From the NCBI RefSeq assembly GCF_000019605.1, contig NC_010482.1:900001-932000 (forward strand): a stretch of DNA of 32,000 nt. Direction: 5' to 3'. Below are positions 535 to 15,894 of the stretch, one piece after another. Position 1 is the first letter of the stretch, and every line of letters begins with the position of its first letter. Both the position numbers and the translations under genes were made by a program. The stretch comes from Candidatus Korarchaeum cryptofilum OPF8. Its GTDB lineage: Archaea > Korarchaeota > Korarchaeia > Korarchaeales > Korarchaeaceae. A model generated the notes under the pieces. It saw nothing but the letters and a program-made list of their open reading frames with translations. It ran no database searches and had not been told where the DNA came from.

Positions 535-596
535 GCTGAGAGGGAGCGAGGCTATGAGCCGAAGTTTTCGTCCTATAAAATGGGAGGTAAGTGAAG

Positions 597-1610: not shown

Positions 1611-2635
1611 TGAGAATGGCTATCAGGGGAAGGATGGTCGATAGAGGGTTGGAGAGTGTAGAGAAAGCGACCGAGGCCAAGATAAATATAGTGGGCATTG
1701 GAGGATGCGGCAATAACATAATAAGCGCATTTTACAAGAAGTTCCCGAAGAACGTAAAGACGATAGCTGTCAATACTGATTCCGCTGTACTGAAGAAGGC
1801 CGATGCCGATGAGAAGGTCTTAATAGGAAGGTATACTCACAAGGGAAGGGGAGCCCAGGGAGTACCTGATCTAGGGAGAGAGGCGATGGAGGAGGATATA
1901 GAAAGCGTATTAAGAGCTTTGGATGAGAACGTGGGCATCGTTATAGGCATAGCTGGGATGGGAGGCGGAACTGGTTCAGGAGGTCTCCCGGTGCTCATGA
2001 GGGAGATAGGCTTGAGGAAGAGAGAGGTGATAAAGATCTCGGTGGTCACATTACCAATGAGGGAAGAGGGAGAGGAGAGGAAGAGAAATGCCCAATTCTC
2101 ATTGAAGGAGACCTTAGAGGTTTCCGATGTGACTGTCGTAAATGCTAACGACTTAGCTATGGAGAAAGCGAAAAGCGTGGATCTCAACTATGCATTCTCA
2201 ATGGTCAATAGGAAGATAGAGAGGAGCATCTATGCTCTCGTTAAGATGCAGAGCTCAGAGACAGGACCTGGCTACGTTAACGTTGATCTGAGCAATTTCG
2301 CGAGGATATCCTATCAGTCTGGCTTGGGCTTCATAGGAGTGGGGAGAGGTCGCTATATATTCGAGGCTTTCGATGATGCCCTGCAGGATGATTATGCCAA
2401 GTGTGACTTAACGGAGGCCAAGGGAGCGATAATATACTTTGAGGGCAAATCCGTCGACCTGAGGGTGGATCAGATGAGGGAAGCGACTGATATATTGAGC
2501 AGAAGGTACAGGATTCCCACTGTGTTCATGGGAGTCAGGCCTACCTTCGAGTACCCTGATGTGAGGGTCAACCTCCTCGTGACTCAGGTGAGGTCTCACT
2601 ATGTGGATGATTTTTTAGCTGAGTTAGGTTTGTGA
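1607..2635 (+). CDS. FtsZ/tubulin-superfamily GTPase, paralog 2
   Basis: The start overlaps the paralog-1 stop. Candidate starts are GTG 1607, ATG 1610 and ATG 1616, and ATG 1616 has the best spacing to GGGAGTGAT. Motifs are GIGGCGNN, AVNTDSAVL, GRGAQGVPDLG, GMGGGTGSGG, VVTLPMREEG, T7 NVDLSN (2279-2296) and GLGFIGVG. Confidence 0.9.
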   Translation: MMRMAIRGRMVDRGLESVEKATEAKINIVGIGGCGNNIISAFYKKFPKNVKTIAVNTDSAVLKKADADEKVLIGRYTHKGRGAQGVPDLGREAMEEDIESVLRALDENVGIVIGIAGMGGGTGSGGLPVLMREIGLRKREVIKISVVTLPMREEGEERKRNAQFSLKETLEVSDVTVVNANDLAMEKAKSVDLNYAFSMVNRKIERSIYALVKMQSSETGPGYVNVDLSNFARISYQSGLGFIGVGRGRYIFEAFDDALQDDYAKCDLTEAKGAIIYFEGKSVDLRVDQMREATDILSRRYRIPTVFMGVRPTFEYPDVRVNLLVTQVRSHYVDDFLAELGL

Positions 2636-2964: not shown

Positions 2965-3960
2965 ATGATGTCTAGGTCCGAGTTAGCTAGGGCTTCCGAG
3001 CTCTCCGCCCTCAAGATGGTGCTAGTGGGCGTTGGAGGATGCGGTAACAATACAGTGAACAATGTAAAGAGGTACGGTGTCAGAGTTCCAACTGTCGCGG
3101 TCAATACTGACGCTCCCACGCTGCAGAGGATAAGTGCTGACATAAAGATATTGATCGGGGAAGGCGCTCACAAGGGAAGGGGAGCCGCTGGTTCGCCAGA
3201 GCTAGGCAGGCAAATAGCGGAGCAGGATATGGACAAGATATTAGCCCCGCTGAGGGACAAGGAACTCATAATGATAACTGCAGGCATGGGAGGAGGTACA
3301 GGGACAGGAGCTGGACCGACGATAGCTGAAGCTATCAAGGAGAAGTTCCCGGACAAGATAGTCATAGGGATAGTCACTTTACCTTTCACATCTGAGGGGC
3401 CGACTAGGATAAGGAACGCCCAGTGGGGCCTCTCCAGGATGCTCGACTCCGCTGATATGACTGTAGTCAATGCTAACGATTTACTCAAGGAGAGGGCAGG
3501 TAACTTACCAGTTAGCCAGGCTTTCAGGGAAATGGACAAGCTCCTAGTCGATATAATAGATTCTATAGTGGGTCTCCAGGATATAGTACCGCAGCCGGGT
3601 CTCGTGAACATAGATTACAGCAATATGGAAGTCTTAGTGAGGGGCTCTGGCTTGGGCTTCATAGGTATAGGGAGAGGGAGAAGCTCGATGGAAGCTTTCA
3701 GAAATGCATTAGCTGCGAATTACAGCCAGGCAGATATAAGGAACGCTAAGGGAGCTATAGTCTACGTTGAGGGCAATCAATCGCAGCTGGTGATGAGGGA
3801 GCTCGACAGGATACCTCAAATGCTTTCGAGCGATTACAATATAATGAGCATATTCTGGGGAATAAAGCCGAACTGGAAGCTCTATGAACCCAAGATAATG
3901 CTTCTGGCGACTGGAGTTAGATCTGAGCTCGTCGATAGATGGTTACAAGGAGGGATATGA
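2965..3960 (+). CDS. FtsZ/tubulin-superfamily GTPase, paralog 3
   Basis: GAGGTGA precedes ATG 2965. Motifs are GVGGCGNN, AVNTDAPTL, GRGAAGSPELG, GMGGGTGTGAGP, IVTLPFTSEG, T7 NIDYSN (3607-3624) and GLGFIGIG. It is the closest relative of paralog 2, sharing a 19-nt identical stretch at 1837-1855 and 3168-3186. Confidence 0.9.
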   Translation: MMSRSELARASELSALKMVLVGVGGCGNNTVNNVKRYGVRVPTVAVNTDAPTLQRISADIKILIGEGAHKGRGAAGSPELGRQIAEQDMDKILAPLRDKELIMITAGMGGGTGTGAGPTIAEAIKEKFPDKIVIGIVTLPFTSEGPTRIRNAQWGLSRMLDSADMTVVNANDLLKERAGNLPVSQAFREMDKLLVDIIDSIVGLQDIVPQPGLVNIDYSNMEVLVRGSGLGFIGIGRGRSSMEAFRNALAANYSQADIRNAKGAIVYVEGNQSQLVMRELDRIPQMLSSDYNIMSIFWGIKPNWKLYEPKIMLLATGVRSELVDRWLQGGI

Positions 3961-4196
3961 TGATCAAGAGGGAGGAGGTAGTGGGAAAGGAGGTAATAGA
4001 TAGCTCAGGGAGGAGGGTAGGGGTAGTGGATGATGTCGTCATAGATCAGGAGGGAAAGGCTAGCCTCCTCGTCAGGGTGAAGATAGTTAGAGGAGGAAGT
4101 GAGAAAGTCCTGGAGTACACACTCCCCCCATCAAATATTTTAGCTGTTGGTGATGTTGTTTTAGTTAAAGGTATTGTGGAGGTGAGGAGGAAATGA
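3957..4196 (+). CDS. Stand-alone PRC-barrel domain protein (about 79 aa)
   Basis: ATG 3957 overlaps the paralog-3 stop (ATATGATG) and follows GGAGGGA. The longer track ORF starts at 3939. MMIKREEVVGKEVIDSSGRRVGVVDDVVIDQEGKASLLVRV...LPPSNILAVGDVVLV matches the PRC-barrel pattern (G-x-x-V-x-D-x-x-G-x-x-[IV]-G-x-V-x-D-[VL]-x-[IV]-D). Confidence 0.8.
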   Translation: MMIKREEVVGKEVIDSSGRRVGVVDDVVIDQEGKASLLVRVKIVRGGSEKVLEYTLPPSNILAVGDVVLVKGIVEVRRK

Positions 4197-5182
4197 GTTG
4201 GAGGAGAGGAGAGCCCACTTCCCAGCTCAAGCTGGCTGTGGTGGGCATAGGAGGAGCAGGTTGCAACATGATAACGAACATCAAGAGGACCGGCTTCTCG
4301 GATGCGAAGCTGATAGCGGTTAATACCGATGCCGCCTCTCTCAGTGCAACGAAAGCGGATCATAAGGTGCTCGCGGGCGAATCTTTCCTAGGAGGAAGGA
4401 GCGCCAGAACTATAGAGAATGGGAAGAAAGCCATGGAGGCTGTTAAGGAGAACCTGATATCTATGCTGAGCGATAGGGAGCTCATAGTACTCTTAGCTGG
4501 TTTGGGAGGAGGTGCGGGAACAGGAGGAATAGTTACGTTAGCTGAGACGATAAAGGAGAGCTTACCGAATGCCCTAACGATAAGCTACGTTGTTATACCA
4601 TTCGCGAGCGAGGGAGAGGTGAGGATAAACAATGCGAAGTACGGTCTCTCCGAGATAATAGATCTCTCCGATGTCACTTGGGTAGCTTTCAATGATGTGC
4701 TGAAGAGGAAGTTCACGAACATGCCGCTGACTAGGGCATATAAGATGATGGATGATAGGCTCTTCAACGTCATAAGAGGTCTGGCTTCCCTTCAGAACCT
4801 CTCACCGCTTCCGGGGATGCAGAATGTCGATTTTGCGATAATGAAGGAAATTGCCAAGGGATCTGGCTTAGGTTACGCTGGATTCGGGGAAGGGAGGACA
4901 GCAAGAGAGGCATTCGAGTCTTCCTTAGTTGATCCCTTCGGAGATGCTGATCACAAGGGAGCTAAGGGTGTAGTTGGGATACTTGAGTCCACTGAGACAG
5001 CTGTCTCGGTTGAGGGGATGACATACGTTCAGGATGTCCTAACGACTAACCTGGGAATACCTGAGGTCTACTTCGGTCTCAAGCCGAGCATAGAGATGAC
5101 CACTCCCAAGGTCACTGTCTACACATTCGGAGTTAAGTCAAGGATGGTGGAGGACTTCCTGAGTTCTATGGGAGGTGGCTAA
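4193..5182 (+). CDS. FtsZ/tubulin-superfamily GTPase, paralog 4 (most degenerate T3 region)
   Basis: ATGA overlap with the PRC-barrel gene stop. Motifs are GIGGAGCN, AVNTDAASL, GLGGGAGTGG, VVIPFASEG, T7 NVDFAI (4823-4840) and GLGYAGFG. The T3-equivalent reads GGRSARTIENG rather than G-x-G-x-G-x-x-P. Confidence 0.88.
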   Translation: MSWRRGEPTSQLKLAVVGIGGAGCNMITNIKRTGFSDAKLIAVNTDAASLSATKADHKVLAGESFLGGRSARTIENGKKAMEAVKENLISMLSDRELIVLLAGLGGGAGTGGIVTLAETIKESLPNALTISYVVIPFASEGEVRINNAKYGLSEIIDLSDVTWVAFNDVLKRKFTNMPLTRAYKMMDDRLFNVIRGLASLQNLSPLPGMQNVDFAIMKEIAKGSGLGYAGFGEGRTAREAFESSLVDPFGDADHKGAKGVVGILESTETAVSVEGMTYVQDVLTTNLGIPEVYFGLKPSIEMTTPKVTVYTFGVKSRMVEDFLSSMGGG

Positions 5183-5185
5183 GCA

Positions 5186-6157
5186 ATGTCAGGAGCTCCT
5201 GAGGGTGCCAGGGTAACGATGACGGTCGTAGGTGTAGGAGGGGCCGGTTGCAATACTTTAAACAGACTCAAGGAAGTAGGTGCGCCCGTAAAGACGATAG
5301 CAATACATACCGAAGCTAATCATCTAAAGGCGATCAAATCCGATGTCAAGCTTCTCGTCGGGGAAACAGTAACTGGCGGTTTCGGTAGCGGAGGCAACCC
5401 CAATGTGGGTGAGAGAGCTATAATGGCGGATCTGGATAGGATAATGGCAGCTATAGGTAGGCCGCACGTCCTCATAGTGACTGGAGGGCTAGGAGGAGGA
5501 ACCGCTTCGGGAGGAATTGCGCCTATACTCTCGGCAGTTAGGGACAGGTTCCCCGATGTCATAAGGATAGCTTTGGTCTCCTTCCCCTTCTCTTGGGAGG
5601 GGTTGGGAAAGGTAAATAACGCTAGATATGGCCTCTCGAGGATAATGGGGGTAGCGGATCTCACGATAGTGAACTTAAACGATATATTGAGCAGGAAGAT
5701 CGGGTACATACAGGTTCAATATGCATTCAAGTACGCTGACTCACTGCTAGCAGCTGTCATCTCAGATCTCGCTAACCTGTTCTACATGCCCCATGTGGTC
5801 AGCATAAGCTTCGCTGACTTCGAGGCTGTCGTTAGAGAGGCTGGCTTAGGTGCCGTAGGGCTTGGAGTCGGCGGAAGGGTTGCCGATGCAGCGAAGACAG
5901 CCCTAGGGAACATATTGCTCGACGCTGAGATAAAAGAAGCTGACTCCGCGCTAGTTTACTTGCAGGCGACTCCCAATACGAGCTTAGAGGAGGCTGGCTC
6001 TGCTACCAAGCTCCTAACTGAGGATTACCTCCTCGAGAGGGTCTACTGGGGATTCAGGATAGCTGAAGATCTCAACGAGCCCAGGATAACTATAATAGCC
6101 TCGGGCGTGAGGTCCCCAACGCTAGAAGGTCTGCTCGGGATCTCGGCCACTAGATAA
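5186..6157 (+). CDS. FtsZ/tubulin-superfamily GTPase, paralog 5
   Basis: Starts 3 nt after the paralog-4 stop, with GGAGGTGG upstream. Motifs are GVGGAGCN, AIHTEANHL, GGFGSGGNPNVG, GLGGGTASGG, VSFPFSWEG, T7 SISFAD (5801-5818) and GLGAVGLG. Confidence 0.88.
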   Translation: MSGAPEGARVTMTVVGVGGAGCNTLNRLKEVGAPVKTIAIHTEANHLKAIKSDVKLLVGETVTGGFGSGGNPNVGERAIMADLDRIMAAIGRPHVLIVTGGLGGGTASGGIAPILSAVRDRFPDVIRIALVSFPFSWEGLGKVNNARYGLSRIMGVADLTIVNLNDILSRKIGYIQVQYAFKYADSLLAAVISDLANLFYMPHVVSISFADFEAVVREAGLGAVGLGVGGRVADAAKTALGNILLDAEIKEADSALVYLQATPNTSLEEAGSATKLLTEDYLLERVYWGFRIAEDLNEPRITIIASGVRSPTLEGLLGISATR

Positions 6158-6162
6158 ACTAC

Positions 6163-6176
6163 TTTTTTTCTTTTTT
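6163..6176 (+). terminator. Oligo-T terminator of the FtsZ-paralog operon
   Basis: T7-C-T6 begins 6 nt after the TAA at 6155-6157. It is the first oligo-T tract after seven tightly packed genes. Confidence 0.65.
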
Positions 6177-6263
6177 GTCCGCAACTTTGGAAATTTTGCA
6201 GGAATCCTACCCGAAATTTGGAGCGAATATTTTTATCTCGGTCAGGCATTCTCATCCGGAATC

Positions 6264-7172
6264 ATGGCTTCGGATGAGGATTCCAGCAGGATTGAACTGA
6301 GCGTTAATAAGGCACCACCGCTCTACCCTGTGAAGCTTAGCCTCGAGATGAGGCAGGAACTTGTCGTTAGATCGCTTAAAGTGAGCAATTATATAAGCAT
6401 AGCTAAGGAGACAGGCATCCCCTTAGCTAAGGTAATGAAGATAATGTCGACGCCCAGCTCACCTATGCCCCTCGCCCTAGTTTTGAAACTAGCTGAACTC
6501 GCTAGAATAGATCTATGGGACGTCCTCCGATCTATCGAGGGCATGGGCATAAGGAAGTTCCTTAAGCCCAATTTCGATGTTGAAGCCGCGGCTTCCTTCA
6601 TAGGTTATGCCGTCTCGAGCAGCTCGAAGTTCAAGGTGGGAAGGGGAAATGTAACCGTATCCCTGAGGTACGATGATGATTTCCAGCTCTCACACATCAT
6701 AGATCTATCTAAGAGGATCCTGAACATAGAGGCGTCGGATATCTCCATCAATAGGAGGGAGAGGAAGGTCTATCTATTATCTCAGTTCGGCGTTATATTG
6801 CTCCTCTTTGGAGCTCCGACGAAGAGAGAGTTTTACGATGGCTGGGAGATCCCATGTTGGCTTGAGAGGTACCCATCCCATTTCCTGAAGACTTTCCAGA
6901 GCGGAAGGTTATTCAGGAGCGTGCCCTCTAGGGGATGCGCTAGGTTCTACTTCAAGACGTTCAACATGGAGGGGATGCTCAAGTTCATAGAGAGGCTCAG
7001 AGGCTTATACGCGAGGGTAGGGGTTAATATGGAGGAGAGGCCCAGGCTACTCTCAGATAACATAATATACATCGAGATATGCAGGAGAGCAGTCCTCGAG
7101 GCTCTGCTTTACTCGATAGGCTTCACGTCTCAAAGAAAAATAAGGGAGATTTCCCAGCTCCTGGGGAGATAG
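6264..7172 (+). CDS. Hypothetical protein with an N-terminal helix-turn-helix and a possible degenerate LAGLIDADG-like domain
   Basis: 302-aa ORF. A TATA-like atatttttatc lies about 27 nt upstream of the ATG, suggesting a leaderless transcript. The HTH-like segment is VSNYISIAKETGIPLAKVMKIM. AASFIGYAVSSSSKF resembles a LAGLIDADG helix but lacks the acidic residues. Confidence 0.6.
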   Translation: MASDEDSSRIELSVNKAPPLYPVKLSLEMRQELVVRSLKVSNYISIAKETGIPLAKVMKIMSTPSSPMPLALVLKLAELARIDLWDVLRSIEGMGIRKFLKPNFDVEAAASFIGYAVSSSSKFKVGRGNVTVSLRYDDDFQLSHIIDLSKRILNIEASDISINRRERKVYLLSQFGVILLLFGAPTKREFYDGWEIPCWLERYPSHFLKTFQSGRLFRSVPSRGCARFYFKTFNMEGMLKFIERLRGLYARVGVNMEERPRLLSDNIIYIEICRRAVLEALLYSIGFTSQRKIREISQLLGR

Positions 7173-7455: not shown

Positions 7456-8787
7456 TCACCCTGTTGGGGGCTTTATCACTATGCTAACCTCCTCCTTCTC
7501 CTTCCTCCTCTTGTATATCAGGAAGCCAGCTACAGCTATTACTACTATAACCACGGCTATCACAGCTATCATTATGTTCCTCTGCTTCTCTTCCTCCATC
7601 CTCTTGATCATCTCCTTCTGTTCAGTTACGTAAGACTTCGCCTCATTGCTCAGATTCTCTATGCTATTTAAGATGGAGTTGGCCGTCTGATTAGCCCCTG
7701 AAAGGTCTCCAGCTGACCACTTCTCATATACCGCTCTCTTCTCCGAGTTGAGCCTCGAGACCTCATTATAGAACTTATCCAAGGATATGTTGGGCTCGCT
7801 CTTCCTCGTCTCCTCGAGATATGATGCGAATTGAGATAACTTCGTCTCAACAACCACTAGCTTTGAAACGAAGCTCATGTAGTCGTTTATCTTCCTCTCA
7901 ATCGCTTCGAGCTGGCTTAAGGCTTCCTCACTAGCTCCCCTATCTATCATAGCCTTCACGCTCTCAAGGCTCTTGTTGATGCCACTCGCGACATTCAAGA
8001 GCGTTGATGAATCTCCTCCCACCCTATCTAAATCGCCTTTCATGTTCACGAAGCTGGAGAGCTTAGATCTGACTTCCTCATATTTCCTCTTCGCTAAGGA
8101 GGGAGATGAGAGCCAGGAGAAGAGTTCTTTAGTGAATAACTTGTTATCCTTCTGAGAGAGAAGAGCCCCGCTGAAGAAATCTACTGAGGATACGACTACC
8201 CTTCCCATCCCGTAGTTCTGTCCCACCATCAAGACTAGGTTACTCTGACGCGGGTCCGTCTCAGTGAACCTCCCATTCTTATCCCTATCTATCCATACTT
8301 CCTTACTGATCAGGAACCTCGGCAAGTTAGCTGAGAGGCTCAATGAACTCCCTTTGACTATCACTTCTCTTGAGTACTTGAAGTAAGTCGAGTTAACGGT
8401 GGCCTCGAATGGGTCGCAACCGCCTATGACCTTTATCGTGCACAGAGGATCGTCGGTAGACATAGCATTGAATACTGCGCTCACGGCGTTCCTGACTATT
8501 AGTAGGGAGTGACCAGCTCTCACATAAGAGTCCAGCTGGCTGATCTCACCCTCGCTCAATGGAGCAGTTTGGTTCACGATCACCAATATATCTATATCCT
8601 CGGATACGGTATCAACATCCTTAACTATGTAGCCCTCGCTCTCAAGTAGCTTCTTTAGCTCCGGGAACTTTGCAGAGGAAAGTCCGTGCTTCTTATCGAA
8701 TCCCACTGTAATGCTTCCTTGAGACTCGGCCATTACAGGTGCAAGTAGTATTAGAAGCGCTAATAGGACTACAATTCTTTCTCTCAT
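7456..8787 (-). CDS. Secreted, C-terminally membrane-anchored protein: signal peptide, alpha/beta domain (DUF4350/GldG-like by eye), long coiled coil, TM anchor
   Basis: ATG at 8787 is preceded by GGTGGAGGTGATC, a near-perfect anti-16S SD. The track ORF extends to 8886 without support. N-terminus MRERIVVLLALLILLAPVMAES is a signal peptide. C-terminus IMIAVIAVVIVVIAVAGFLIYKRRKEKE is a TM anchor followed by basic residues. Confidence 0.75.
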   Translation of the reverse strand: MRERIVVLLALLILLAPVMAESQGSITVGFDKKHGLSSAKFPELKKLLESEGYIVKDVDTVSEDIDILVIVNQTAPLSEGEISQLDSYVRAGHSLLIVRNAVSAVFNAMSTDDPLCTIKVIGGCDPFEATVNSTYFKYSREVIVKGSSLSLSANLPRFLISKEVWIDRDKNGRFTETDPRQSNLVLMVGQNYGMGRVVVSSVDFFSGALLSQKDNKLFTKELFSWLSSPSLAKRKYEEVRSKLSSFVNMKGDLDRVGGDSSTLLNVASGINKSLESVKAMIDRGASEEALSQLEAIERKINDYMSFVSKLVVVETKLSQFASYLEETRKSEPNISLDKFYNEVSRLNSEKRAVYEKWSAGDLSGANQTANSILNSIENLSNEAKSYVTEQKEMIKRMEEEKQRNIMIAVIAVVIVVIAVAGFLIYKRRKEKEEVSIVIKPPTG

Positions 8788-9226
8788 GATTAAGATCACC
8801 TCCACCCCGCGCACGGGTGGACATTTAGTTGCCCTAGTGAGGAATAATAAAAATGTTGATGGAGCTTCGTATACTCCCTCATTCAACTCAGTCCTGAGTC
8901 AAAGCTCTTATCATTATTGTAGCACATACCTTCGGATGGAGAGTATTCATCTTTGAAGGAGCTCATAAAGGGAGAGAGCCTCTAAATGGTTGAGGATGTC
9001 AAGATGAGGTTTCAAGATGAACAGCGAGGATCTGAAGATCTACTAAAGGCTGTATAAATGGCTTAAATAGAGCCCTTTGCATAAGGTTCCCTCCCGGACA
9101 ATTTTCTATTAGCTTAATGCGAACTAATTCTTTCATTCGGAGTTGAAAAATAGGTAGGACCTTCCGATTACCCCTCTATTATAATTCGATAGGTCCCTTT
9201 TTCTTGCAATCATTCCCATTAGAATC

Positions 9227-9457
9227 ATGCCAATGTATGAGTACATCCTATCCTGTGGAGAGATAGTGAACCTGAATGGGAAGCTGAGGAAGTCCTATAG
9301 TGGGGTGGAGGAGGAATACACTGTGGAGATAAAGGACTACGTTTGGCCTACCTGGGTTAGGGAGCCCAGGGGAGCGATAAAGTGGGAAGGGTATGAGGTC
9401 ACGATGAGGAGGGACTACTTGAGGAAGAGGATAGAAGTTAAAATGAAAAAATCATAA
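9227..9457 (+). CDS. Hypothetical small protein (76 aa)
   Basis: Only ORF in this interval. A TATA-like tattataatt lies about 40 nt upstream. No recognisable motif. Confidence 0.45.
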   Translation: MPMYEYILSCGEIVNLNGKLRKSYSGVEEEYTVEIKDYVWPTWVREPRGAIKWEGYEVTMRRDYLRKRIEVKMKKS

Positions 9458-9461
9458 TTTT

Positions 9462-10067
9462 TTAAGCTTTGACCTTAGCCTCGGCATATGATTGAATGGA
9501 TCTGCTCATTATGTCAGCTCTCACGGTCTTAAGGAAGTGAATGAATGCTTCTTGAACGCCATCCCCTCGTAAAGCTGAGATGGGGATAACTTCCGCTTCC
9601 ATCCCCAGGAGGCCCTTTATCACATCCGGGGGCTTAGCATCCGGGAGATCCTGTTTATTTGCCAGGACCAGGAATGGGAATCCCGGGGGGAGGACTTCTC
9701 TAGCTTCCTGATACTGGCCGAGAGCGTAGACCAGTTGAACGGGTTGAGTACTATCTACTATCATTATTACGCCATCCTTACCTTTCACCAGCGCCTTCCT
9801 GACGTAAGAGAACGCGATCTGCCCCGGAGTTCCCGTAAGCGTGACCTTCCATATCTCATTGAAGGGATCTAAATTCTCTATACTCTCCTTAGGGTAAAGC
9901 TCGTTCTTCGTAGCATCCCAGAAGATTATTCCGTAATCGAAACCAACGGTTGTGGATAGAGTACCTTTCTCATAATCCATCCTCACAGCAGAAGGATCCA
10001 GCTTCCTTATGAAAGTGCTCTTTCCCGCTTGATGAGGACCTATTATAGCTAGGGAGATCTTCCTCAT
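9462..10067 (-). CDS. MglA-type small Ras-superfamily GTPase
   Basis: G1 is GPHQAGKST and the switch-I Thr sits in STTVGFDYG. G3 is TGTPGQ, with Thr replacing the DxxGQ Asp as in the MglA family. G4 is NKQD and G5 is ISALRG. A 4-nt ATGA overlap joins it to the upstream 528-aa gene. Confidence 0.85.
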   Translation of the reverse strand: MRKISLAIIGPHQAGKSTFIRKLDPSAVRMDYEKGTLSTTVGFDYGIIFWDATKNELYPKESIENLDPFNEIWKVTLTGTPGQIAFSYVRKALVKGKDGVIMIVDSTQPVQLVYALGQYQEAREVLPPGFPFLVLANKQDLPDAKPPDVIKGLLGMEAEVIPISALRGDGVQEAFIHFLKTVRADIMSRSIQSYAEAKVKA

Positions 10068-11650
10068 CCCTTAGCACCTAGCTGCATCTTTACCTCATTC
10101 ACCCTAGATTTGAGCTGGGATATCAGCTCCCTGTACTCAGAGATCCTTCCCATCATGAATAAGGACTTCGCCCTCTCGAAGTCCTCTCTGATCCTCTTTA
10201 TGCCCATATCATCCAAATTTGGGAGCATTACTCCTAAATCAGATACCATATCCTCTATTACCTCTATTTCCATCTCCAATTTCCTCATGTCCTCAGGGAT
10301 TATCCTCATGGCTACCTTATCCTCGTTAACGACCACTATCCCCTCATCAGCTAGGTTCCTGAGGACCCAAGGCCTCCAGCTCCCGGGAATGAACTTCAAG
10401 TCTTGGAGAGATATTTCCCCTCTCTCCCTGAGAAGTGATATTATTTTTTCCCTCCATTTCGGATATAGCTCCAATATTTCACTCATTACCCCAGTATAGC
10501 CGACCGTCTCGGGCATCCCGTAAGAGAGCCTTGAGGCTCTGAGGCAGTTGTTGAGGCTATCCAAGAAAGACTCCGTTGAATCTAATGAGATCTTGCTTAG
10601 ATCTAGCTTTGCATCCTTAGGGATATACTCCAGCTCATCTATGACGCTCTTAATTAGCGAACTTATCCTGTTTAACCTTTCAACCTCCCTCCTCAGGGAT
10701 TCTATATGTATTCTAGATCTTATGAGGAGGGGTATCTTGGGGAAATCCAACCCTATATAGGGAATTATCTCCTTGAACCTTCTGAGCTCCGCTATCCCCT
10801 CCATCCTCTCTAAGAGATCTCCCTTCATCTCCTCAATACTAGCCTTCAGATCTATCAACTTTTGGGAAATTTGAATCAGCTTCTTGGAATCATTCTCAAC
10901 TTCTGCAAGCCTGGAGGTGATATTCTTCAAATATTTCTGCAGGATCCCTTCCTCGACCTCTTGAAGCCTCTCAATAAATCTCTCTCGCAATTCTAAATAA
11001 TGTGAGAGTCTTTCATATCTCACTCCCATCAGATCTAGCTCTTCTTCAATTGATCTCAATTTTTCGAATGCTTCGTTTAGAGATGATATAGCTTCCTCCT
11101 TTATCTTCCTCTGCTCCTCTTTAGGCTCAACTTTCTGCTCCTGGACTTCTTTATGAATCTCGGATTTCTTTAAGATCCTCAAGAAGCTCAGAGCTGCTGG
11201 TATCTCCTCATAACTCCTCAGTTCCTCTATATCTAGCCCCTTTTCACGTATATATGCATTTACTTTGGTGACGAGCTCCCTCTCCAGAGAGTTAACTTCC
11301 TCGAGCGTGACCTCCAGGATCCTCCTTACTTCCTTAATCTTCCCCTTATCCCTGAGGAAGGGCCTCATATAAGCCGGATCCCCTATTAGGCTTGTCACTA
11401 TCCCCTTCACGGACTGGAATAGCAGATTTGCTCTGTTCGATATATCCTCCCCGCTCCCTATTTCCTTTTCGACCTCCGGAGAGATTTCTCCCAGCTTCTT
11501 CACCTTCTCCAGTATTTTCTCGAGTAGGGGAAATAGTTCATCCTTCTTCATCAAGCTCTCAAGCTTATCTATCTTATCTAAGCCGTATCCAGCCTCCAGC
11601 AGAGAGGCCCTCAGCGCCTCCCATGGGTTCTCCGATTCCATACAATCCAT
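10064..11650 (-). CDS. Large coiled-coil protein (528 aa) with a C-terminal winged-helix-like module; function unknown
   Basis: Long heptad-rich E/K/L/I/R sequence. Near the C-terminus, ISLLRERGEISLQDLKFIPGSWRPWVLRNLADEGIVVVNEDKVAM looks like a wHTH. Translationally coupled to the MglA-type GTPase. The alternative start is ATG 11641. Confidence 0.75.
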   Translation of the reverse strand: MDCMESENPWEALRASLLEAGYGLDKIDKLESLMKKDELFPLLEKILEKVKKLGEISPEVEKEIGSGEDISNRANLLFQSVKGIVTSLIGDPAYMRPFLRDKGKIKEVRRILEVTLEEVNSLERELVTKVNAYIREKGLDIEELRSYEEIPAALSFLRILKKSEIHKEVQEQKVEPKEEQRKIKEEAISSLNEAFEKLRSIEEELDLMGVRYERLSHYLELRERFIERLQEVEEGILQKYLKNITSRLAEVENDSKKLIQISQKLIDLKASIEEMKGDLLERMEGIAELRRFKEIIPYIGLDFPKIPLLIRSRIHIESLRREVERLNRISSLIKSVIDELEYIPKDAKLDLSKISLDSTESFLDSLNNCLRASRLSYGMPETVGYTGVMSEILELYPKWREKIISLLRERGEISLQDLKFIPGSWRPWVLRNLADEGIVVVNEDKVAMRIIPEDMRKLEMEIEVIEDMVSDLGVMLPNLDDMGIKRIREDFERAKSLFMMGRISEYRELISQLKSRVNEVKMQLGAKG

Positions 11651-11662
11651 TCAGGCCAAGCA

Positions 11663-11677
11663 AATTTTATAAAAATT
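11663..11677. promoter_or_regulatory. Near-palindromic shared TATA element (AATTTTATAAAAATT) for two divergent, apparently leaderless genes
   Basis: It is the only A/T block in the spacer of 46 nt or less. Its centre lies about 27 nt from ATG 11697 (+) and 20-29 nt from ATG 11650/11641 (-). Confidence 0.5.
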
Positions 11678-11696
11678 GCAGGCCCGTTTCACCTAT

Positions 11697-12452
11697 ATGC
11701 TGGAGGAATTCTTCGAAGGTGAATTTGAAAGGCTTGAAGCCTCTTTATTTGAGATCTCAATGTATGAAGTAATAGAAGATATTGTAAATGAGTATAGATT
11801 CACTGAGAGGCTGCTAAAGGCATCTCTCCAGTTCTTAGATGGAGAAATCCTGACGGAGCTTAACTCAATCAAGAAGGATATATCCATGCTTGTAGATAAG
11901 CTTTCTAAGGAGGAAGTGCTTTACAGCAAAGCAATAGATCCTTCTGTAGTCTCTCCCATTCTGAAGAACAGATATCAGCCTCTAGTTAATGAGATAATGA
12001 AGGGGCTCAAGGAGATCAAAGTGAGATCTTTAAGCGAGTTGGAGATGTACATAAACACTCTGATAGAGGTAGTGAAGTACTGTGAGGATTGCCTCTCCGC
12101 GGTTTTCCTCTCAGGGCAACTTAAGGGCATGATAGGGAAGGTAGAGCTGCTGCCTCCGGAGCTCCTAGCATCAACTATAGAGCTGCTAGTTAAACATATA
12201 CCTCAGGAGGGATCTCCTGAGAGGGTTATCAAGGAGATAGGGAATATGAGAGTCGCTTTAAGGGAATTCTTCACGGATTTGAAGGAGGAAGATAGGGAAA
12301 GGATAAGGTCCGCTCTGGATACTCTGGATAGGGTGAAGTTCCTGGTCGAGAGATTCCCGGGGCTATCGGGGGCTTCAATTAGATATTTAGAGGATCTGAA
12401 GAGGAAGCTATTTGATGAGGTTATGAGCGGACTGAGCAAGGGGTCCCTCTGA
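11697..12452 (+). CDS. All-helical hypothetical protein (about 251 aa), divergent partner of the coiled-coil/GTPase operon
   Basis: The track ORF starts at TTG 11676, inside the TATA element. The first ATG (11697) sits at leaderless distance. No recognisable motif. Confidence 0.65.
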   Translation: MLEEFFEGEFERLEASLFEISMYEVIEDIVNEYRFTERLLKASLQFLDGEILTELNSIKKDISMLVDKLSKEEVLYSKAIDPSVVSPILKNRYQPLVNEIMKGLKEIKVRSLSELEMYINTLIEVVKYCEDCLSAVFLSGQLKGMIGKVELLPPELLASTIELLVKHIPQEGSPERVIKEIGNMRVALREFFTDLKEEDRERIRSALDTLDRVKFLVERFPGLSGASIRYLEDLKRKLFDEVMSGLSKGSL

Positions 12453-12480: not shown

Positions 12481-13014
12481 CTAGGGGAGCTTCAGAGTCA
12501 CGCCAGTTATTTCCAACTCGCTACCTCCTGGTGTCGCGACAAGCATGGGTTCCGGAGGTATGAGCAGCTCTTTCCCATCCTTCGAGCGAAGTACGGCATG
12601 AGTTGGTGTTATGAGGAGATATACTCTGGGTTCCTGATTGTAGAGAGTCCTTATCCTAGCCCCCCTTCCCAGCTCTTGGAAGCTGTAGGTCACACCTCTA
12701 ACCCTGAGCATCCCCGGAAGTTCAGATACCGTCTCCGGAATTTTGTAAATAGTGCTACCGAATTTGACCTCGCATGGTTTATGTATGACCAACATTCTCG
12801 TCTTTCCCGTTTGGATGCCTAGATCCAATACATCGGAGCCGCAGAACTCGATACGACCCCTTGGCGGCATCAACATCTCAAATTCTATAAGAGTTACGCA
12901 CTTTTCTCCGCATCCAATATTAAAAATATTAGCTCTTAACCCGCCTAGGCTAATAACCTTTCCTCTTTCATCCCAAGAGAAGCTCACTCTCTCTATGAAG
13001 GATATCCCGCTCAT
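12481..13014 (-). CDS. All-beta hypothetical protein (177 aa)
   Basis: Clean ORF convergent with 11697-12452. An A/T-rich region lies upstream. No recognisable motif. Confidence 0.55.
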   Translation of the reverse strand: MSGISFIERVSFSWDERGKVISLGGLRANIFNIGCGEKCVTLIEFEMLMPPRGRIEFCGSDVLDLGIQTGKTRMLVIHKPCEVKFGSTIYKIPETVSELPGMLRVRGVTYSFQELGRGARIRTLYNQEPRVYLLITPTHAVLRSKDGKELLIPPEPMLVATPGGSELEITGVTLKLP

Positions 13015-13205: not shown

Positions 13206-13217
13206 AGCTTTAAAGCT
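13206..13217 (+). promoter_or_regulatory. Palindromic AGCTTTAAAGCT centred on a TTTAAA TATA-variant; likely promoter of the Roadblock gene
   Basis: Perfect 12-nt palindrome. Its centre is 26 nt upstream of ATG 13238, which is leaderless spacing. Confidence 0.4.
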
Positions 13218-13237
13218 TCCCTTCGGACCTGAGGACG

Positions 13238-13600
13238 ATGGAACCGTCGGGGGAGTTCGAGTCACTCATAAATGATGTAAAGAATTCGCTAGGAGATTCC
13301 CTTATATCAATGAAGATATTTACATCGGACGGCATAATCTTATATTCCGATTCCAAGCAATCACCGGGAGAGGATTTTCTTGTCGCCTCATTCTCAGCCA
13401 TGGCGGAGATCTCCAAGAGTATCTCAGCTCACCTCAGCCTCAAGGAGCCGAGCATCCTCCTCCTAGAGGAGGGGCATTTCATATTGATTAGGAGGGTGAT
13501 CAGGGACGTTATATTGATGGTGAACGTTAAAGGATCCTATGAAGATCATTTAGAAGCGATAGCTGGGATCCTGCGTAGATTGAGCGAATTCTTCCATTGA
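13238..13600 (+). CDS. Roadblock/LC7 (MglB-like) domain protein
   Basis: 120 aa. The predicted order alpha-beta-beta-alpha-beta-beta fits FESLINDVKNSLGDSLISMKIFTSDGIILYSD...EDFLVASFSAMAEISKSI...ILLLEEGHFILIRRV...ILMVNV, which is the typical Robl/LC7 pattern. Confidence 0.75.
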   Translation: MEPSGEFESLINDVKNSLGDSLISMKIFTSDGIILYSDSKQSPGEDFLVASFSAMAEISKSISAHLSLKEPSILLLEEGHFILIRRVIRDVILMVNVKGSYEDHLEAIAGILRRLSEFFH

Positions 13601-13610
13601 TTGAGTGAGT

Positions 13611-13624
13611 AAAATTTATATTTT
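13611..13624 (+). promoter_or_regulatory. TATA-like AAAATTTATATTTT upstream of the Arf-like GTPase gene
   Basis: Its centre is about 27 nt upstream of the GTG start at 13644. It could be an internal promoter or simply spacer within a Roadblock-GTPase operon. Confidence 0.35.
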
Positions 13625-13643
13625 GAAGTGAAGCTGAATTCAT

Positions 13644-14546
13644 GTGTCGTTCAAGAGGCTCGTTTCAAGTGTATTCGGGCTCTTTAAGAAGCCGACTACT
13701 CTAGTCATTTTAGGATTGGATGGCGCCGGGAAAACGACGATGCTGAATTACTTGCTCACAGGGGAGCCAGGGGTAACCGCACCGACAGTCGGAGCCAATT
13801 TCGAGAAGTTCAAGGTCAAGGAGCTTGAGTTCAACGTATGGGATCTCGGAGGTCAGAAGGCCCTAAGGGGTATGTGGGAGGAGTACGCTGAGAAGGCTGA
13901 TGCGGTAATTTTCGTTCTGGACTCAGCTGATAGGGAGAGATTCCCTGAGGCTAAGGAGGAGCTCTGGAGGATAGTCTCCGTGATAAGGAAGAGTAAGCCT
14001 CTACTCATAATCGCGAATAAGGCTGATCTTGAGAATGCTGCGACAGTAATGGAAGTTATAGAAGCATTGGAATTGACGAAGTTAGAGGGGATGACTTGGC
14101 AGATAGTCTGGGCTAGCGCTTTAACGGGCTTCGGCTTATTCGAGGCCTTCGCATGGATCTATGAGAGGCTGACAGGCAAGGAAGTTTCGCACCCCCTCAG
14201 GATAGAGGATCTGATCGTTTTAGATGATAAAGGGAACCCAATAATTTCAACGAGTTCGACAACTAGCTTGACGCTCAGCGCCTTCGTTTCATTAGTGAGG
14301 AATTATACGACGGAATCTCTCAAAGATATCCCGCAGACGATAGAGATGAGGGACAAGAGATTGATAATAGCGATCAGGGAGGGCCTGATAGGCGCTGCTT
14401 TGGTCCCCCGTTACTCCTCCGAGAGTAAGGTGAAAGCGCTCCTAGTGGATGTCCTCAATAACATAGCGAGGGTCAAGGATAAGGAGAGGGCTAGGGAGGC
14501 CCTCATGGAAGTAATAGAAAAGTACGTTGAGAACGTAGGGACTTGA
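13644..14546 (+). CDS. Arf/Arl/Sar-family-like small GTPase with N-terminal amphipathic helix, fused to a C-terminal Roadblock/longin-type domain (300 aa)
   Basis: GTG start. The nearby ATG at 13642 is out of frame and terminates quickly. N-terminus is MSFKRLVSSVFGLFKK. G1 is GLDGAGKTT, switch I is PTVGANFE, and the interswitch/G3 is FNVWDLGGQ. These are followed by VLDSADRERFPEAKEEL, G4 ANKADLENA and G5 ASALTGFGLFEAFAWI. Residues about 185-300 read as beta-beta-alpha-beta-beta-beta-alpha (IEDLIVLDDKGNPIIST...). Confidence 0.85.
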   Translation: MSFKRLVSSVFGLFKKPTTLVILGLDGAGKTTMLNYLLTGEPGVTAPTVGANFEKFKVKELEFNVWDLGGQKALRGMWEEYAEKADAVIFVLDSADRERFPEAKEELWRIVSVIRKSKPLLIIANKADLENAATVMEVIEALELTKLEGMTWQIVWASALTGFGLFEAFAWIYERLTGKEVSHPLRIEDLIVLDDKGNPIISTSSTTSLTLSAFVSLVRNYTTESLKDIPQTIEMRDKRLIIAIREGLIGAALVPRYSSESKVKALLVDVLNNIARVKDKERAREALMEVIEKYVENVGT

Positions 14547-14558
14547 TGGGGGGATCAG

Positions 14559-15014
14559 ATGACTCTAATAAAGTTACTCCTCTCAATACTCGACAAGGAG
14601 GGTTTCTCACTGATAGGCTTCTATCCCCCGGGGGAGATAGACGAGGAGATCAAGAAGCTAGTGGTGAAGGCTTTCCCGATGTCGGCATCCGGAGGAGAGG
14701 TCGTCAAGTTCAAGCAGATGAATCTGAACTTCGTAGGCTGTACGGTCAGATTGGCTGGGGAGAAGCCGAGGCAGGGGATGGCAGCTCTCGTAGCTATAAC
14801 CGATGATGAGGGGGAAGTTAGCAGAGTGGAATCAGGGATGTTGAGGGTGGCTGAGAGCATATCATCGAGCGATATGACTTCCGATAAGTTGAAGGATCTT
14901 CTGCCGGATGTTTTTAAGTTCCTCTCAGCGTATAGGGGCAAGGAGAGTGAAGCTGAGGGGAAGGATAAGGGAGCCTTAGATAAGGCCGTTGAGAGGGCCA
15001 GGGGTTTCTTCTAG
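14559..15014 (+). CDS. Hypothetical protein (151 aa), longin/Roadblock-like fold candidate with an acidic/lysine-rich tail
   Basis: Starts 12 nt after the GTPase stop and is preceded by GGGGGGAT. LIKLLLSILDKEGFSLIGFYPPGEIDEEIKKLVVKAF...NLNFVGCTVRL...AALVAITDD...MLRVAESI reads as beta-beta-alpha-beta-beta-beta-alpha. Preferred over the overlapping 14543-14806 ORF. Confidence 0.6.
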   Translation: MTLIKLLLSILDKEGFSLIGFYPPGEIDEEIKKLVVKAFPMSASGGEVVKFKQMNLNFVGCTVRLAGEKPRQGMAALVAITDDEGEVSRVESGMLRVAESISSSDMTSDKLKDLLPDVFKFLSAYRGKESEAEGKDKGALDKAVERARGFF

Positions 15015-15034
15015 GGGGTGGTATCATTCAGGCG

Positions 15035-15856
15035 ATGGGAATCGATCCATATGTCCTCGCTCATACGACTTCTCTCCTCTTGATGGCAGCTGCAGCGATA
15101 TACCACCTCATAACTCTCCTCAGGCTGAGGGGCTCAGGCACTTCATGGCTCAGGGGAGCTGGGCCTACGATTGCATGGCTCATATTATTCGCATTATGGG
15201 CAGTAACTGAGTACTTCCTCCTCTCATATTATGAGAAAGTGGGATTCCCCTTCACAATCCTCCCGCCGAGGCTCATACTCAATGTGGACCTCTGGTTCTA
15301 CGCTTTCGTAACACTGCTCATCTCTTTCGCATTCGTAATCACGGTGAGCTTCTATCTACTTGAGCTCAAAGTCCTCTATATTTTACCAGCTGTTGGAGTT
15401 TCCTTCAGCCTCTACATAGTTTACTTGACCTATAGGCTCTACGGGATCACCCTCTTCACATACTTCGAGATTAATGAGGTATTATCGGGAATGATCGCCC
15501 TATTAATAGGTATGACTCAGCTCTTCGGTCTCATTTCAGTGATCCTGTTCCTCTACATTTACATGAGGACCAAGAGTATGAGGGCTCTCTCCTTCGCGAT
15601 AGCTAGCTTCATAATGGGTCTTCTCCTGTTAGGTATAGATTACACTCTTTCCATTCTTCCATTGGCCTTAACAAGACAGATTCTTCCTTGGAGGGATGAA
15701 TTCCTGAAGATGCTCGTCGACTGGCCTCTGAACGTTATATACATAATAGCGGCCCTCCTGATGTTCCTAGGGCAGATAAGGGTTCTGGATGCTATATTCA
15801 AGCCTTCAGCTAAGAAAGAAGCTCCCTGGATAGAGAAGATGATGGAGAAGAGCTGA
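15035..15856 (+). CDS. Polytopic membrane protein (273 aa, about 7-8 TM helices), last gene of the GTPase operon
   Basis: Starts 20 nt after the previous stop. Hydrophobic segments continue throughout. An oligo-T block follows it. Confidence 0.7.
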
Positions 15857-15862
15857 GTACAC

Positions 15863-15883
15863 TTTTTATTTTTTTACCTTTTT
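15863..15883 (+). terminator. T-rich block (T5-A-T7-ACC-T5): terminator of the GTPase/membrane operon, doubling as the A/T promoter element for ilvD
   Basis: Begins 7 nt after the stop at 15856 and ends 12 nt before ATG 15895. Confidence 0.5.
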
Positions 15884-15894
15884 CGAGTATCCTT

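Follow-up and report, generated by a model that had tools for sequence, protein, structure and literature searches.

The native regulators of archaeal Arf-family GTPases are being sought, as these GTPases are central to ideas on the origin of the eukaryotic endomembrane system. In Asgard archaea, comparison of folds across a whole proteome yielded no convincing native GTPase-activating protein (GAP) or guanine nucleotide exchange factor (GEF) for Arf (Zhu et al., PMC11914678). In MK-D1, GTPase genes are generally not found in operons with longin or Roadblock genes, which prevented Tran et al. (2024, PMC10933270) from assigning partners; a study published in Traffic in 2025 asks whether ArfR or Rag partners the Asgard longins that carry an arginine finger (PMC12290439). 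Which partners belong to an archaeal Arf-family GTPase is also the question raised by the locus examined here, which lies in a 32,000-nucleotide (nt) stretch of the Candidatus Korarchaeum cryptofilum OPF8 genome (contig NC_010482.1, positions 900,001 to 932,000 of the forward strand; hereafter the window, numbered from its first letter). The locus consists of four genes, referred to as genes 1 to 4 (Table 1), encoding a divergent Roadblock/LC7 protein, an ArfR GTPase with a fused C-terminal domain, a stand-alone longin-fold protein and a polytopic membrane protein. The reading towards which we lean is that of an Arf-family switch with an operon-encoded longin GAP, the product of gene 3, held at a membrane partner; among genomic candidates so far for the GAP that archaeal Arf GTPases seem to lack, gene 3 is the best. 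This reading is supported by the conserved linkage of the genes, the GAP-type structural matches of gene 3, its invariant arginine (R71), the catalytic glutamine retained by the GTPase, and the 12- and 20-nt spacing of genes 2, 3 and 4 with their Shine-Dalgarno (SD)-like motifs.

The AlphaFold2 model of gene 3 (predicted local distance difference test, pLDDT, 73; predicted template modelling score, pTM, 0.71), built like that of gene 2 on 14 close sequences, has the element order ββαβββαα. Strands occupy residues 3-12, 15-22, 48-53, 56-64 and 74-81 and helices residues 29-38, 84-102 and 108-124; beyond them the chain is charged and disordered and closes with a short helix. The original prediction, made from the sequence of the window, had proposed this element order, a longin fold and a charged tail, and the model agrees with it on all three. 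Searched against the PDB with Foldseek, the model gave 16 matches at E <= 1e-3, all 16 to longin-containing proteins. The best were yeast Npr2 (8adl_S, E 3.3e-5; chain identity confirmed) and human NPRL2 and NPRL3 in several GATOR1 structures, and the longin domain of a Lokiarchaeota Roadblock-Longin protein (8yqg) was matched within the same threshold; weaker matches (E 2e-3 to 1e-2) were to the Commander/DENND10 entry 8p0v, Lst4, FLCN, Ykt6 and VAMP7. Judged by its modelled structure, gene 3 is a longin-fold protein.

Sequence conservation within the gene-3 family is concentrated in very few positions. Among 46 distinct members from Korarchaeia and Asgard archaea, where identity to the window protein drops to 11-20% (alignment A6), only P23 (45 of 46), G46 (46 of 46) and R71 (46 of 46) are essentially invariant. 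R71 (codon 14769-14771) lies in the loop between β4 and β5 of the model. An arginine finger has been placed between longin β4 and β5 in candidate Arf-family DENN GAPs (Avl9 preprint, 10.64898/2026.01.05.697756), and the catalytic arginines of FLCN, NPRL2 and SMCR8 lie in their longin domains (PMC12290439). No other invariant arginine in the module offers itself as a finger of the longin-GAP type. A local hhalign comparison of the gene-3 family with human NPRL2 (sequence verified against 6ces_N) was collinear over 131 columns without reaching significance (E 0.21); the path of this insignificant alignment pairs G15, P23 and R71 of gene 3 with G20, P28 and R78 of NPRL2, where G20 is the G of the GP motif and R78 is the residue that we take to be the arginine finger. 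In the gene-3 family the position of this motif ([G/N]-[P/L/F]; motif described in PMC12290439) reads [G/N]-P in 24 of 46 members. The family additionally ends in a conserved (K/R)G(S)FF, which is RGFF in the window copy.

Gene 3 lacks both a DENN-type region and sequence homology to the FLCN, NPRL2 and SMCR8 families and is therefore not one of their members; its modelled fold suggests that it may work like the longin GAPs without belonging to their families. A gene-3 profile recovered only seven clusters from 1.84 billion cluster representatives (HMMER), and the Asgard relatives were found only through synteny and a broader profile. When 21 members of the family were compared with Pfam, the result was a scatter of single matches, each to another family (best E 0.0038), with uDENN appearing once (0.086).

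The GTPase encoded by gene 2 is an Arf-family protein. Residues 9-175 match the Pfam Arf family (PF00025) at 168 bits (E 1.6e-49; cutoff 22.3), and the match to Gtr1_RagA is far below this (28 bits, E 1.5e-6). All 14 korarchaeal homologues compared share the motifs GLDGAGKTT, PTVGAN, WDLGGQ, NKAD and SALTG without variation, and the catalytic glutamine of WDLGGQ is kept in all family members aligned. In Foldseek, the G domain of the AlphaFold2 model (pLDDT 77) superposes on Arf1-GDP (E 3e-17) and the Asgard HodArfR1 (8oul, E 4e-16). It contains an N-terminal helix at residues 3-11, and residues 3-16 (FKRLVSSVFGLFKK) have a hydrophobic moment of 0.67, which together point to an N-terminal amphipathic helix that may contact the membrane. 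Gene 2 is a member of the korarchaeal ArfR GTPases that have already been published. Its homologues P0002 (87% identity) and P0004 (78%) from Candidatus Korarchaeum bear the NCBI name 'Arf family protein', and a 96%-identical product occurs in GTDB species representatives labelled as Thermoproteota metagenome-assembled genomes. Vargova et al. (bioRxiv 10.1101/2024.02.28.582541) describe the korarchaeal ArfR (Kcr_0908) as confined to a terminal korarchaeal branch and take it to have been acquired from Asgard archaea.

The C-terminal domain of gene 2 had been expected to be of the Roadblock type; the superfold was right and the Arf assignment of the G domain stands, but the element order of the fused domain is that of a longin. 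In the AlphaFold2 model, strands at residues 189-193, 199-202, 232-234, 238-245 and 248-255 and helices at residues 206-225, 260-276 and 280-295 give ββαβββαα, and the N-terminal helix typical of Roadblock proteins is absent. This order makes the fused domain a longin-order member of the longin/Roadblock superfold. With its Arf-type G domain and longin-order C-terminal domain, gene 2 falls outside the Rag architecture. A fused-domain profile that included Asgard homologues had as its sole non-trivial PDB matches MON1A longin-1 (E 0.046-0.075), and of the 13 members of the domain family, three touch Pfam Fuz_longin_1 and three touch Robl_LC7. By hhalign, the domain is also related to the N-terminal, longin-like half of a 250-amino-acid (aa) protein of the Asgard clusters described below (probability 81%, E 1.3e-5). 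No significant relationship was detected by hhalign when gene 1, gene 3 and the fused domain were compared pairwise.

The MON1 matches are also the starting point for a different reading, in which gene 3 and the fused longin form a heterodimer like those of Mon1-Ccz1 or TRAPP and act as a GEF, or activating platform, for ArfR or for another GTPase such as the MglA-like one, a second small GTPase encoded 3.2 kb away. The fused domain matches MON1A longin-1 and Fuz_longin_1 better than any other family in sequence, and most characterised longin, DENN and TRAPP assemblies are GEFs (PMC12290439). We nevertheless consider a GEF unlikely. The sole invariant charged residue of gene 3 is the β4-β5 arginine, a hallmark of longin GAPs rather than of GEFs; the structural neighbours of gene 3 are led by GATOR1- and FLCN-type longins and not by Mon1/Ccz1 or TRAPP; and the Asgard and type-B modules (see below) keep gene 3 without a second GTPase.

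Several points weigh against a longin GAP and should be considered alongside the evidence for it. The weak sequence matches of the fused domain are to MON1, a subunit of a GEF, and the prevalence of GEFs among known longin assemblies tells in the same direction. The fold of the fused domain was assigned from the order of its secondary-structure elements, and Foldseek on the whole gene-2 model matched Arf structures only. The gene-3 model comes from a shallow alignment with a modest pLDDT, searches with its 21-member profile against Pfam, NCBIfam and PDB sequences returned no known longin or GAP family, and its alignment to NPRL2 is not significant. Additionally, NPRL3, which is not catalytic, is a match of similar quality to NPRL2, G-F stands in place of G-P at the position of the GP motif in the window copy, and the invariant R71 could be structural.

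The strongest evidence that these proteins belong together comes from gene order, which was counted over loci fetched by a pattern scan with the gene-2 alignment, using one genome per GTDB species. Of 52 fusion-type ArfR loci, a set that includes some duplicate fetches of the same contig, 48 have a gene-3 relative no more than 5 kb away, and the other four loci are cut by contig ends. Among the 32 loci that lack the fused domain, of which 28 carry an Arf-type GTPase, only 3 have a gene-3 relative. Two paralogous arrangements occur in Korarchaeia: type A, to which the window belongs, consists of gene 1, an ArfR of 296-303 aa, gene 3 and gene 4 (loci L005-9, L014-21 and L026), and type B of an ArfR of 288-289 aa followed by versions of genes 3 and 4 (gene 3' and gene 4'), with no Roadblock gene (L002, L003, L012 and L023-25). 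Both types coexist in one genome (L009, L012). In L001 the gene-3 relative is upstream of ArfR and gene 4 is absent; genes 3 and 4 are adjacent in all other loci. In one korarchaeal lineage (L007-L009), genes of 262 aa (+ strand) and 514 aa (- strand) with no Pfam match are inserted between ArfR and gene 3 (7891-10786).

Outside Korarchaeia, relatives of gene 2 with 31-37% identity were found in loci of 27 Asgard species (Promethearchaeota, Hermod- and Hodarchaeota), and they align with residues 13-298, so that the fused domain is included. In 25 of these 27 loci the order is a gene-3-like gene (165 aa), two genes for transmembrane (TM) proteins (217 and 229 aa) and the ArfR fusion, the other two loci being cut by contig ends; one of the Asgard loci (L045) has the korarchaeal order of ArfR, gene 3, TM and TM. 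In a rough neighbour-joining tree all korarchaeal fusions form a single clade, the Asgard fusions are its sister group, and the plain ArfRs fall elsewhere. Counted by species, the ArfR subfamily with gene 3 and membrane proteins occurs at about 37 loci (12 of them korarchaeal and 25 Asgard) of two phyla, and its conserved core is three genes: gene 2, gene 3 and gene 4. The original prediction would have failed had the 151-aa protein adopted neither a longin nor a Roadblock fold, or had the genes been syntenic nowhere else; the modelled fold is that of a longin, and the genes are syntenic in many genomes, among them genomes of a different phylum. The unit had however been described as a four-gene module, and here only the linkage of genes 2, 3 and 4 is conserved, gene 1 being a lineage-restricted addition. 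It is possible in principle that these genes are neighbours by chance with no shared function, as short spacers are common in compact archaeal genomes. Such an explanation is very hard to credit for a three-gene linkage that has survived rearrangements of gene order, duplication of paralogues and transfer between phyla.

The Asgard loci contain further genes around the core. In 15 of them a 250-aa protein is encoded upstream on the same strand, with an N-terminal half that is longin-like and related to the C-terminal domain of ArfR and a C-terminal half that is Roadblock-like. A 424-aa flavin adenine dinucleotide (FAD)-dependent oxidoreductase is encoded upstream of the core in 19 Asgard loci and hints at a possible link to membrane-lipid chemistry; in L040 the stretch 532-2689 spans both genes. 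Another Asgard locus (L033) carries two divergent copies of the module (1-2761 on the - strand and 3077-5900 on the + strand), with the second ArfR fusion and gene-3-like gene on the minus strand. Additionally, a fragment at the end of a contig labelled as an Aminicenantes bacterium (L066, 81-584) matches the C-terminal two-thirds of an Asgard-type ArfR fusion, and this contig is probably a mis-binned Asgard contig.

Gene 4 was predicted to be a membrane protein of about seven to eight TM helices, and its seven hydropathy peaks correspond to about seven. Eight homologues with 24-35% identity align with the window protein throughout. The family shares a conserved tail, predicted to be cytosolic, of the form E..(S/P)WIEKMMEE, in which E262 and W265 are invariant (8-member alignment). 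No Pfam or NCBIfam family was matched by gene 4, and single-sequence and shallow-profile searches of Pfam, NCBIfam and the PDB were empty for genes 1, 3 and 4 alike; once Asgard homologues were added, matches emerged only for gene 1 and, weakly, for the fused domain. Gene 4 is weakly homologous to the 229-aa Asgard TM protein (hmmsearch E 8.6e-5, hhalign E 7e-4), and the match takes in the tail (TWIAKIV versus SWIEKMM). The 217- and 229-aa Asgard TM proteins are paralogues of each other (hhalign probability 90%), and it is the second that is related to gene 4.

The close association of genes 3 and 4 bears on another explanation, namely that gene 3 is an effector or adaptor that binds GTP-loaded ArfR and couples it to gene 4 as the output, as the SRX domain of SRα does with SRβ-GTP. 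SRX, the partner of SRβ, has a longin-like fold. The Arf/ArfR clade in published trees includes SRβ (bioRxiv 10.1101/2024.02.28.582541). Genes 3 and 4 are the tightest pair of the module, both of their products have conserved terminal motifs (RGFF and SWIEKMMEE), and in L010 the two are found as a pair next to another small GTPase. However, no SRX structure was among the top 50 Foldseek matches of gene 3, which are dominated by GAP-type longins, and an adaptor role alone would leave the invariance of the β4-β5 arginine across two phyla unexplained; an adaptor therefore appears improbable. The L010 locus (3698-6271), which comes from the same genome as L001, is an observation in its own right: a second paralogue of gene 3 with a G-P motif (P0131) and a gene-4-like membrane protein of 264 aa lie beside a prepilin peptidase (Peptidase_A24), and a plain small GTPase of 154 aa is encoded on the opposite strand. 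Such an arrangement indicates that the pair of longin and membrane protein can associate with a GTPase that has no fused domain.

Under the longin-GAP reading, the parts of the module could work together as follows. Because ArfR keeps both the catalytic glutamine and the amphipathic helix, we expect it to move between the cytosol and the membrane as it cycles and to be a poor GTP hydrolase when unaided. An Asgard Arf that has been measured has very low intrinsic GTPase activity (PMC11914678), and by analogy the intrinsic activity of this ArfR would also be low. Longin domains act as dimers joined along their edges, and the longin carried by the GTPase itself is the obvious candidate partner for gene 3. 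We infer a physical complex of gene 3 with the GTPase, the simplest contact being an edge-to-edge pairing of the two longins in the manner of NPRL2-NPRL3, FLCN-FNIP2 and C9orf72-SMCR8. R71 would be inserted from the β4-β5 loop into the nucleotide pocket, such that ArfR would carry half of its GAP platform as the fused longin and gene 3 would add the catalytic half. Gene 4 would anchor or receive the complex where ArfR-GTP puts its amphipathic helix into the membrane, and the terminal (K/R)G(S)FF of gene 3 and SWIEKMMEE of gene 4 are candidate contacts. Gene 1 would be a lineage-specific accessory that offers the fused domain a platform or else partners the MglA-like GTPase in the way of MglB.

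The place of gene 1 is less settled than that of the core. It had been called a canonical Roadblock/LC7 protein, which does not apply to the window copy, since it has no Pfam match at E <= 10. At the family level, 8 of 12 orthologues match Robl_LC7 (best E 1.1e-6), the family profile matches only Roadblock/LC7 chains in the PDB (9jue_D, E 0.0026), and the JGI label of its homologues is 'Roadblock/LC7/MglB family'; this assignment surfaced only after distant homologues had been added to the profile. Family-level sequence comparison assigns gene 1 to the Roadblock/LC7 proteins as a divergent member with a predicted MglB fold. The gene is restricted to type-A korarchaeal loci and is absent from type B and, as a stand-alone gene, from all Asgard versions. 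Every type-A locus with enough flank carries, alongside gene 1, the genes for the MglA-like GTPase and for the 528-aa and 258-aa proteins. In relatives of the window, gene 1 follows the homologue of the 258-aa gene directly or with an overlap (a 4-nt gap in L006, overlap in L007-9 and L018), forming a five-gene unit, which indicates that the transcription unit differs between genomes. Homologues of the 177-aa gene, a part of this conserved neighbourhood as well, lie downstream of the MglA-like GTPase gene in L006, L007-9, L018, L019 and L026 and have the position seen in the window in L014 and L015. The 177-, 258- and 528-aa proteins belong to no known family. The ArvA/ArvB/ArvC vesiculation operon (PMC10927574) was considered for this cluster and set aside, since the three proteins lack DUF2072 and DUF2073 (weak unrelated Pfam matches only at E <= 1); the MglA-like GTPase was not compared with ArvA.

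As gene 1 always co-occurs with the MglA-like cluster, it may serve the MglA-like GTPase instead of ArfR, as an MglB-type partner that is a passenger in the ArfR operon, so that two modules lie side by side. MglB is a Roadblock protein (PMC9481161) and the regulator of MglA. The GTPase has the MglA signature TxPGQ and MglA as its best PDB match, and gene 2 has its own conserved TATA box 3' of gene 1. On the other hand, gene 1 is co-oriented with gene 2 at a distance of 43 nt and is not beside the MglA-like gene. Furthermore, the Roadblock half of the protein encoded upstream of the module in the 15 Asgard loci resembles gene 1 (hhalign E 5.5e-4), which makes a Roadblock partner of the ArfR module plausible as well. 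The pairing of gene 1 with the MglA-like GTPase is thus a serious possibility, to which we give somewhat less than even weight. The original prediction had envisaged a switch, two candidate regulators and a membrane receptor in one unit, and a GTPase switch with longin/Roadblock regulators and a membrane partner is still the best description of the locus, with the reservation that gene 1 may serve the other GTPase.

Table 1. Features of the locus and its neighbourhood in the 32,000-nt window
Feature	Position	Strand	Remarks
FtsZ/tubulin-family paralogue, first of five	591-1610	+	about 330 aa
FtsZ/tubulin-family paralogue, second	1607-2635	+	about 330 aa
FtsZ/tubulin-family paralogue, third	2965-3960	+	about 330 aa
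FtsZ/tubulin-family paralogue, fourth	4193-5182	+	about 330 aa
FtsZ/tubulin-family paralogue, fifth	5186-6157	+	about 330 aa
MglA-like small GTPase	9462-10067	-	G3 motif LTGTPGQ (TxPGQ); best PDB match MglA 3t12_A, E 6.4e-8
528-aa helical protein	10064-11650	-	divergent pair with the MglA-like GTPase (9462-11650)
258-aa helical protein	11676-12452	+	no family match
177-aa protein	12481-13014	-	no family match; here separates gene 1 from the 258-aa gene
TATA-like box of gene 1	13206-13217	+	AGCTTTAAAGCT, perfect 12-bp palindrome; core TTTAAA 13209-13214
Gene 1	13238-13600	+	120 aa
Second TATA-like box, TTTATA	13615-13620	+	in the spacer between genes 1 and 2, 29 nt before GTG 13644
Gene 2	13644-14546	+	300 aa; GTG start
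Gene 2, residues 1-181	13644-14186	+	ArfR (Arf-family) G domain with predicted N-terminal amphipathic helix
Gene 2, residues 182-300 and stop	14187-14546	+	fused C-terminal longin-order domain, MON1/FUZ longin-1-like
Gene 3	14559-15014	+	151 aa
Gene 4	15035-15856	+	273 aa
Oligo-T block	15863-15883	+	17 T in 21 nt; single most T-rich 21-mer of the window
ilvD	starts 15895		downstream neighbour of gene 4

The layout of the locus had been described as four same-strand genes with spacers of 43, 12 and 20 nt (genes 1/2, 2/3 and 3/4), bracketed by a palindromic TATA variant and a T-rich terminator block. The genes and spacers are as described, and genes 1 to 4 are real, given that each has conserved homologues in other genomes. 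Both bracketing elements exist, but the unit does not have a single promoter. The core TTTAAA of the box upstream of gene 1, which occurs only three times in the whole window, lies 29 nt upstream of the ATG of gene 1, a distance that suggests a leaderless archaeal mRNA. The core is kept in L014 and L015, and the palindrome arms are not kept in L015. The box is indeed a perfect palindrome, but its palindromy is not above chance, as perfect 12-mer palindromes are common in the window (19 versus 7.7 expected), and the palindrome was rejected as a special regulatory element. An A/T-rich TATA-like element is found in front of gene 2, at the same distance as the TTTATA of the window, in all type-A loci examined (L005, L006, L007, L014, L015, L018, L019, L021 and L026), and TTTATA is likely to be an internal promoter for genes 2-4. 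No TATA-like box was found upstream of genes 3 and 4, which are preceded by the SD-like G-rich motifs GGGGGGAT and GGGGGTGG. With a TATA box for gene 2 and only SD-like motifs for genes 3 and 4, the layout is likely that of a gene 2-3-4 unit, and gene 1 is likely read from its own upstream promoter, possibly with read-through.

The oligo-T block is likely to be the archaeal terminator of the unit, judging by its composition, and may also contain the TATA region of ilvD. The stop of gene 4 is separated from the start of ilvD by 38 nt (15857-15894), a gap which implies either that the block combines a terminator with the ilvD promoter region or that ilvD is co-transcribed. No tRNA or Rfam features were detected, and a defence-system or mobile-element reading was rejected on this ground and on the lack of meaningful PADLOC hits. 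The five tandem FtsZ/tubulin-family paralogues (Pfam Tubulin E 1.5e-27 to 3e-41) lie about 3.3 kb from the MglA-like cluster, and one 16-kb stretch of the window thus concentrates cytoskeletal and small-GTPase genes.

Compared to known systems, the components of the locus are largely familiar: the ArfR GTPase, Asgard fusions of GTPases with longin or Roadblock domains, and Asgard longins with an arginine finger were all already known. The conserved operon itself was not found in the searchable literature. What is new is a stand-alone protein resembling the longin GAPs, encoded in an operon in which its candidate partner longin is fused to the GTPase and which has dedicated membrane proteins. 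Gene 2 shares with the ArfRs of Vargova et al. the Arf Pfam domain, the Arf motifs and the N-terminal amphipathic helix suggested by its sequence and model, and ArfR has been reported in Korarchaeia. That study left ArfRs with large flanking domains out of its helix analysis, and the text of the preprint does not mention Roadblock, gene neighbourhood, synteny or a C-terminal extension and uses the term longin once (bioRxiv 10.1101/2024.02.28.582541). Relative to the ArfR literature, the new element is a fusion subfamily with conserved gene-3 and gene-4 partners.

Two features of the locus recall the MglA-MglB switch, namely the MglB (Roadblock) signature that gene 1 shows at family level and the presence of an MglA-like GTPase with TxPGQ in the same conserved neighbourhood. 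Unlike in that system, gene 1 and the MglA-like gene are non-adjacent and divergent, and gene 1 lies in the ArfR unit. MglA carries an arginine preceding the switch-I threonine, and the MglA-like GTPase of the window has no arginine before this threonine. The Rag/Gtr GTPases and Ragulator are similar to the locus in that a small G domain continues into an α/β dimerisation domain of the longin/Roadblock superfold; small Roadblock proteins as platforms, longin regulators (the GAPs GATOR1 and FLCN there, a candidate GAP here) and a membrane setting are further parallels. However, the G domain of gene 2 is of the Arf type (168 versus 28 bits), the fused domain has longin and not Roadblock order, and there is no evidence of a GTPase heterodimer here.

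The Asgard fusions of GTPases with longin or Roadblock domains and the 'FLCN/SMCR8-type' longins represent the same kinds of building blocks in the same organisms (PMC10933270, PMC12290439). In contrast to the MK-D1 case of Tran et al., conserved gene order here fixes a specific pairing of GTPase and longin. The locus answers the question of partners by genomic context, with one ArfR subfamily tied to one arginine-bearing longin and to membrane proteins.

A further close parallel is with the longin GAPs of eukaryotes for Arf/Rag-family GTPases (GATOR1 NPRL2-NPRL3, FLCN-FNIP2, C9orf72-SMCR8 and Avl9/DENND6A), which share with gene 3 the longin fold and the β4-β5 arginine; at the β1-β2 turn, gene 3 has a glycine, the family often reading G/N-P and the window copy G-F. 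In both cases, moreover, a second longin is available for pairing, and the module also offers a candidate Arf-family substrate with its catalytic glutamine and a polytopic membrane partner comparable to that of CSW-PQLC2. Unlike these GAPs, gene 3 is a stand-alone protein of 151 aa with no DENN or other C-terminal domains and no detectable sequence homology to them, the presumed partner longin is fused to the candidate substrate GTPase, and the system is archaeal and operon-encoded and is known from genes and models. A bolder version of the comparison, by analogy, is that the locus could be for prokaryotes, within a single operon, what the lysosomal longin-GAP assemblies are for eukaryotes, so that a transporter-like membrane protein would signal its state to an Arf/Rag-type switch via a longin GAP; we regard this as speculative and rather doubtful. 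FLCN and SLC38A9 provide an analogous case. CSW is in turn recruited by the transporter PQLC2 (PMC12290439). The three small core proteins (300, 151 and 273 aa) represent an expressible system for asking whether longin-GAP control of Arf pre-dates eukaryotes, and if the lysosomal parallel were true, the wiring of a membrane protein to a longin GAP and an Arf-family GTPase would be older than eukaryotes and could be reconstituted from three archaeal proteins.

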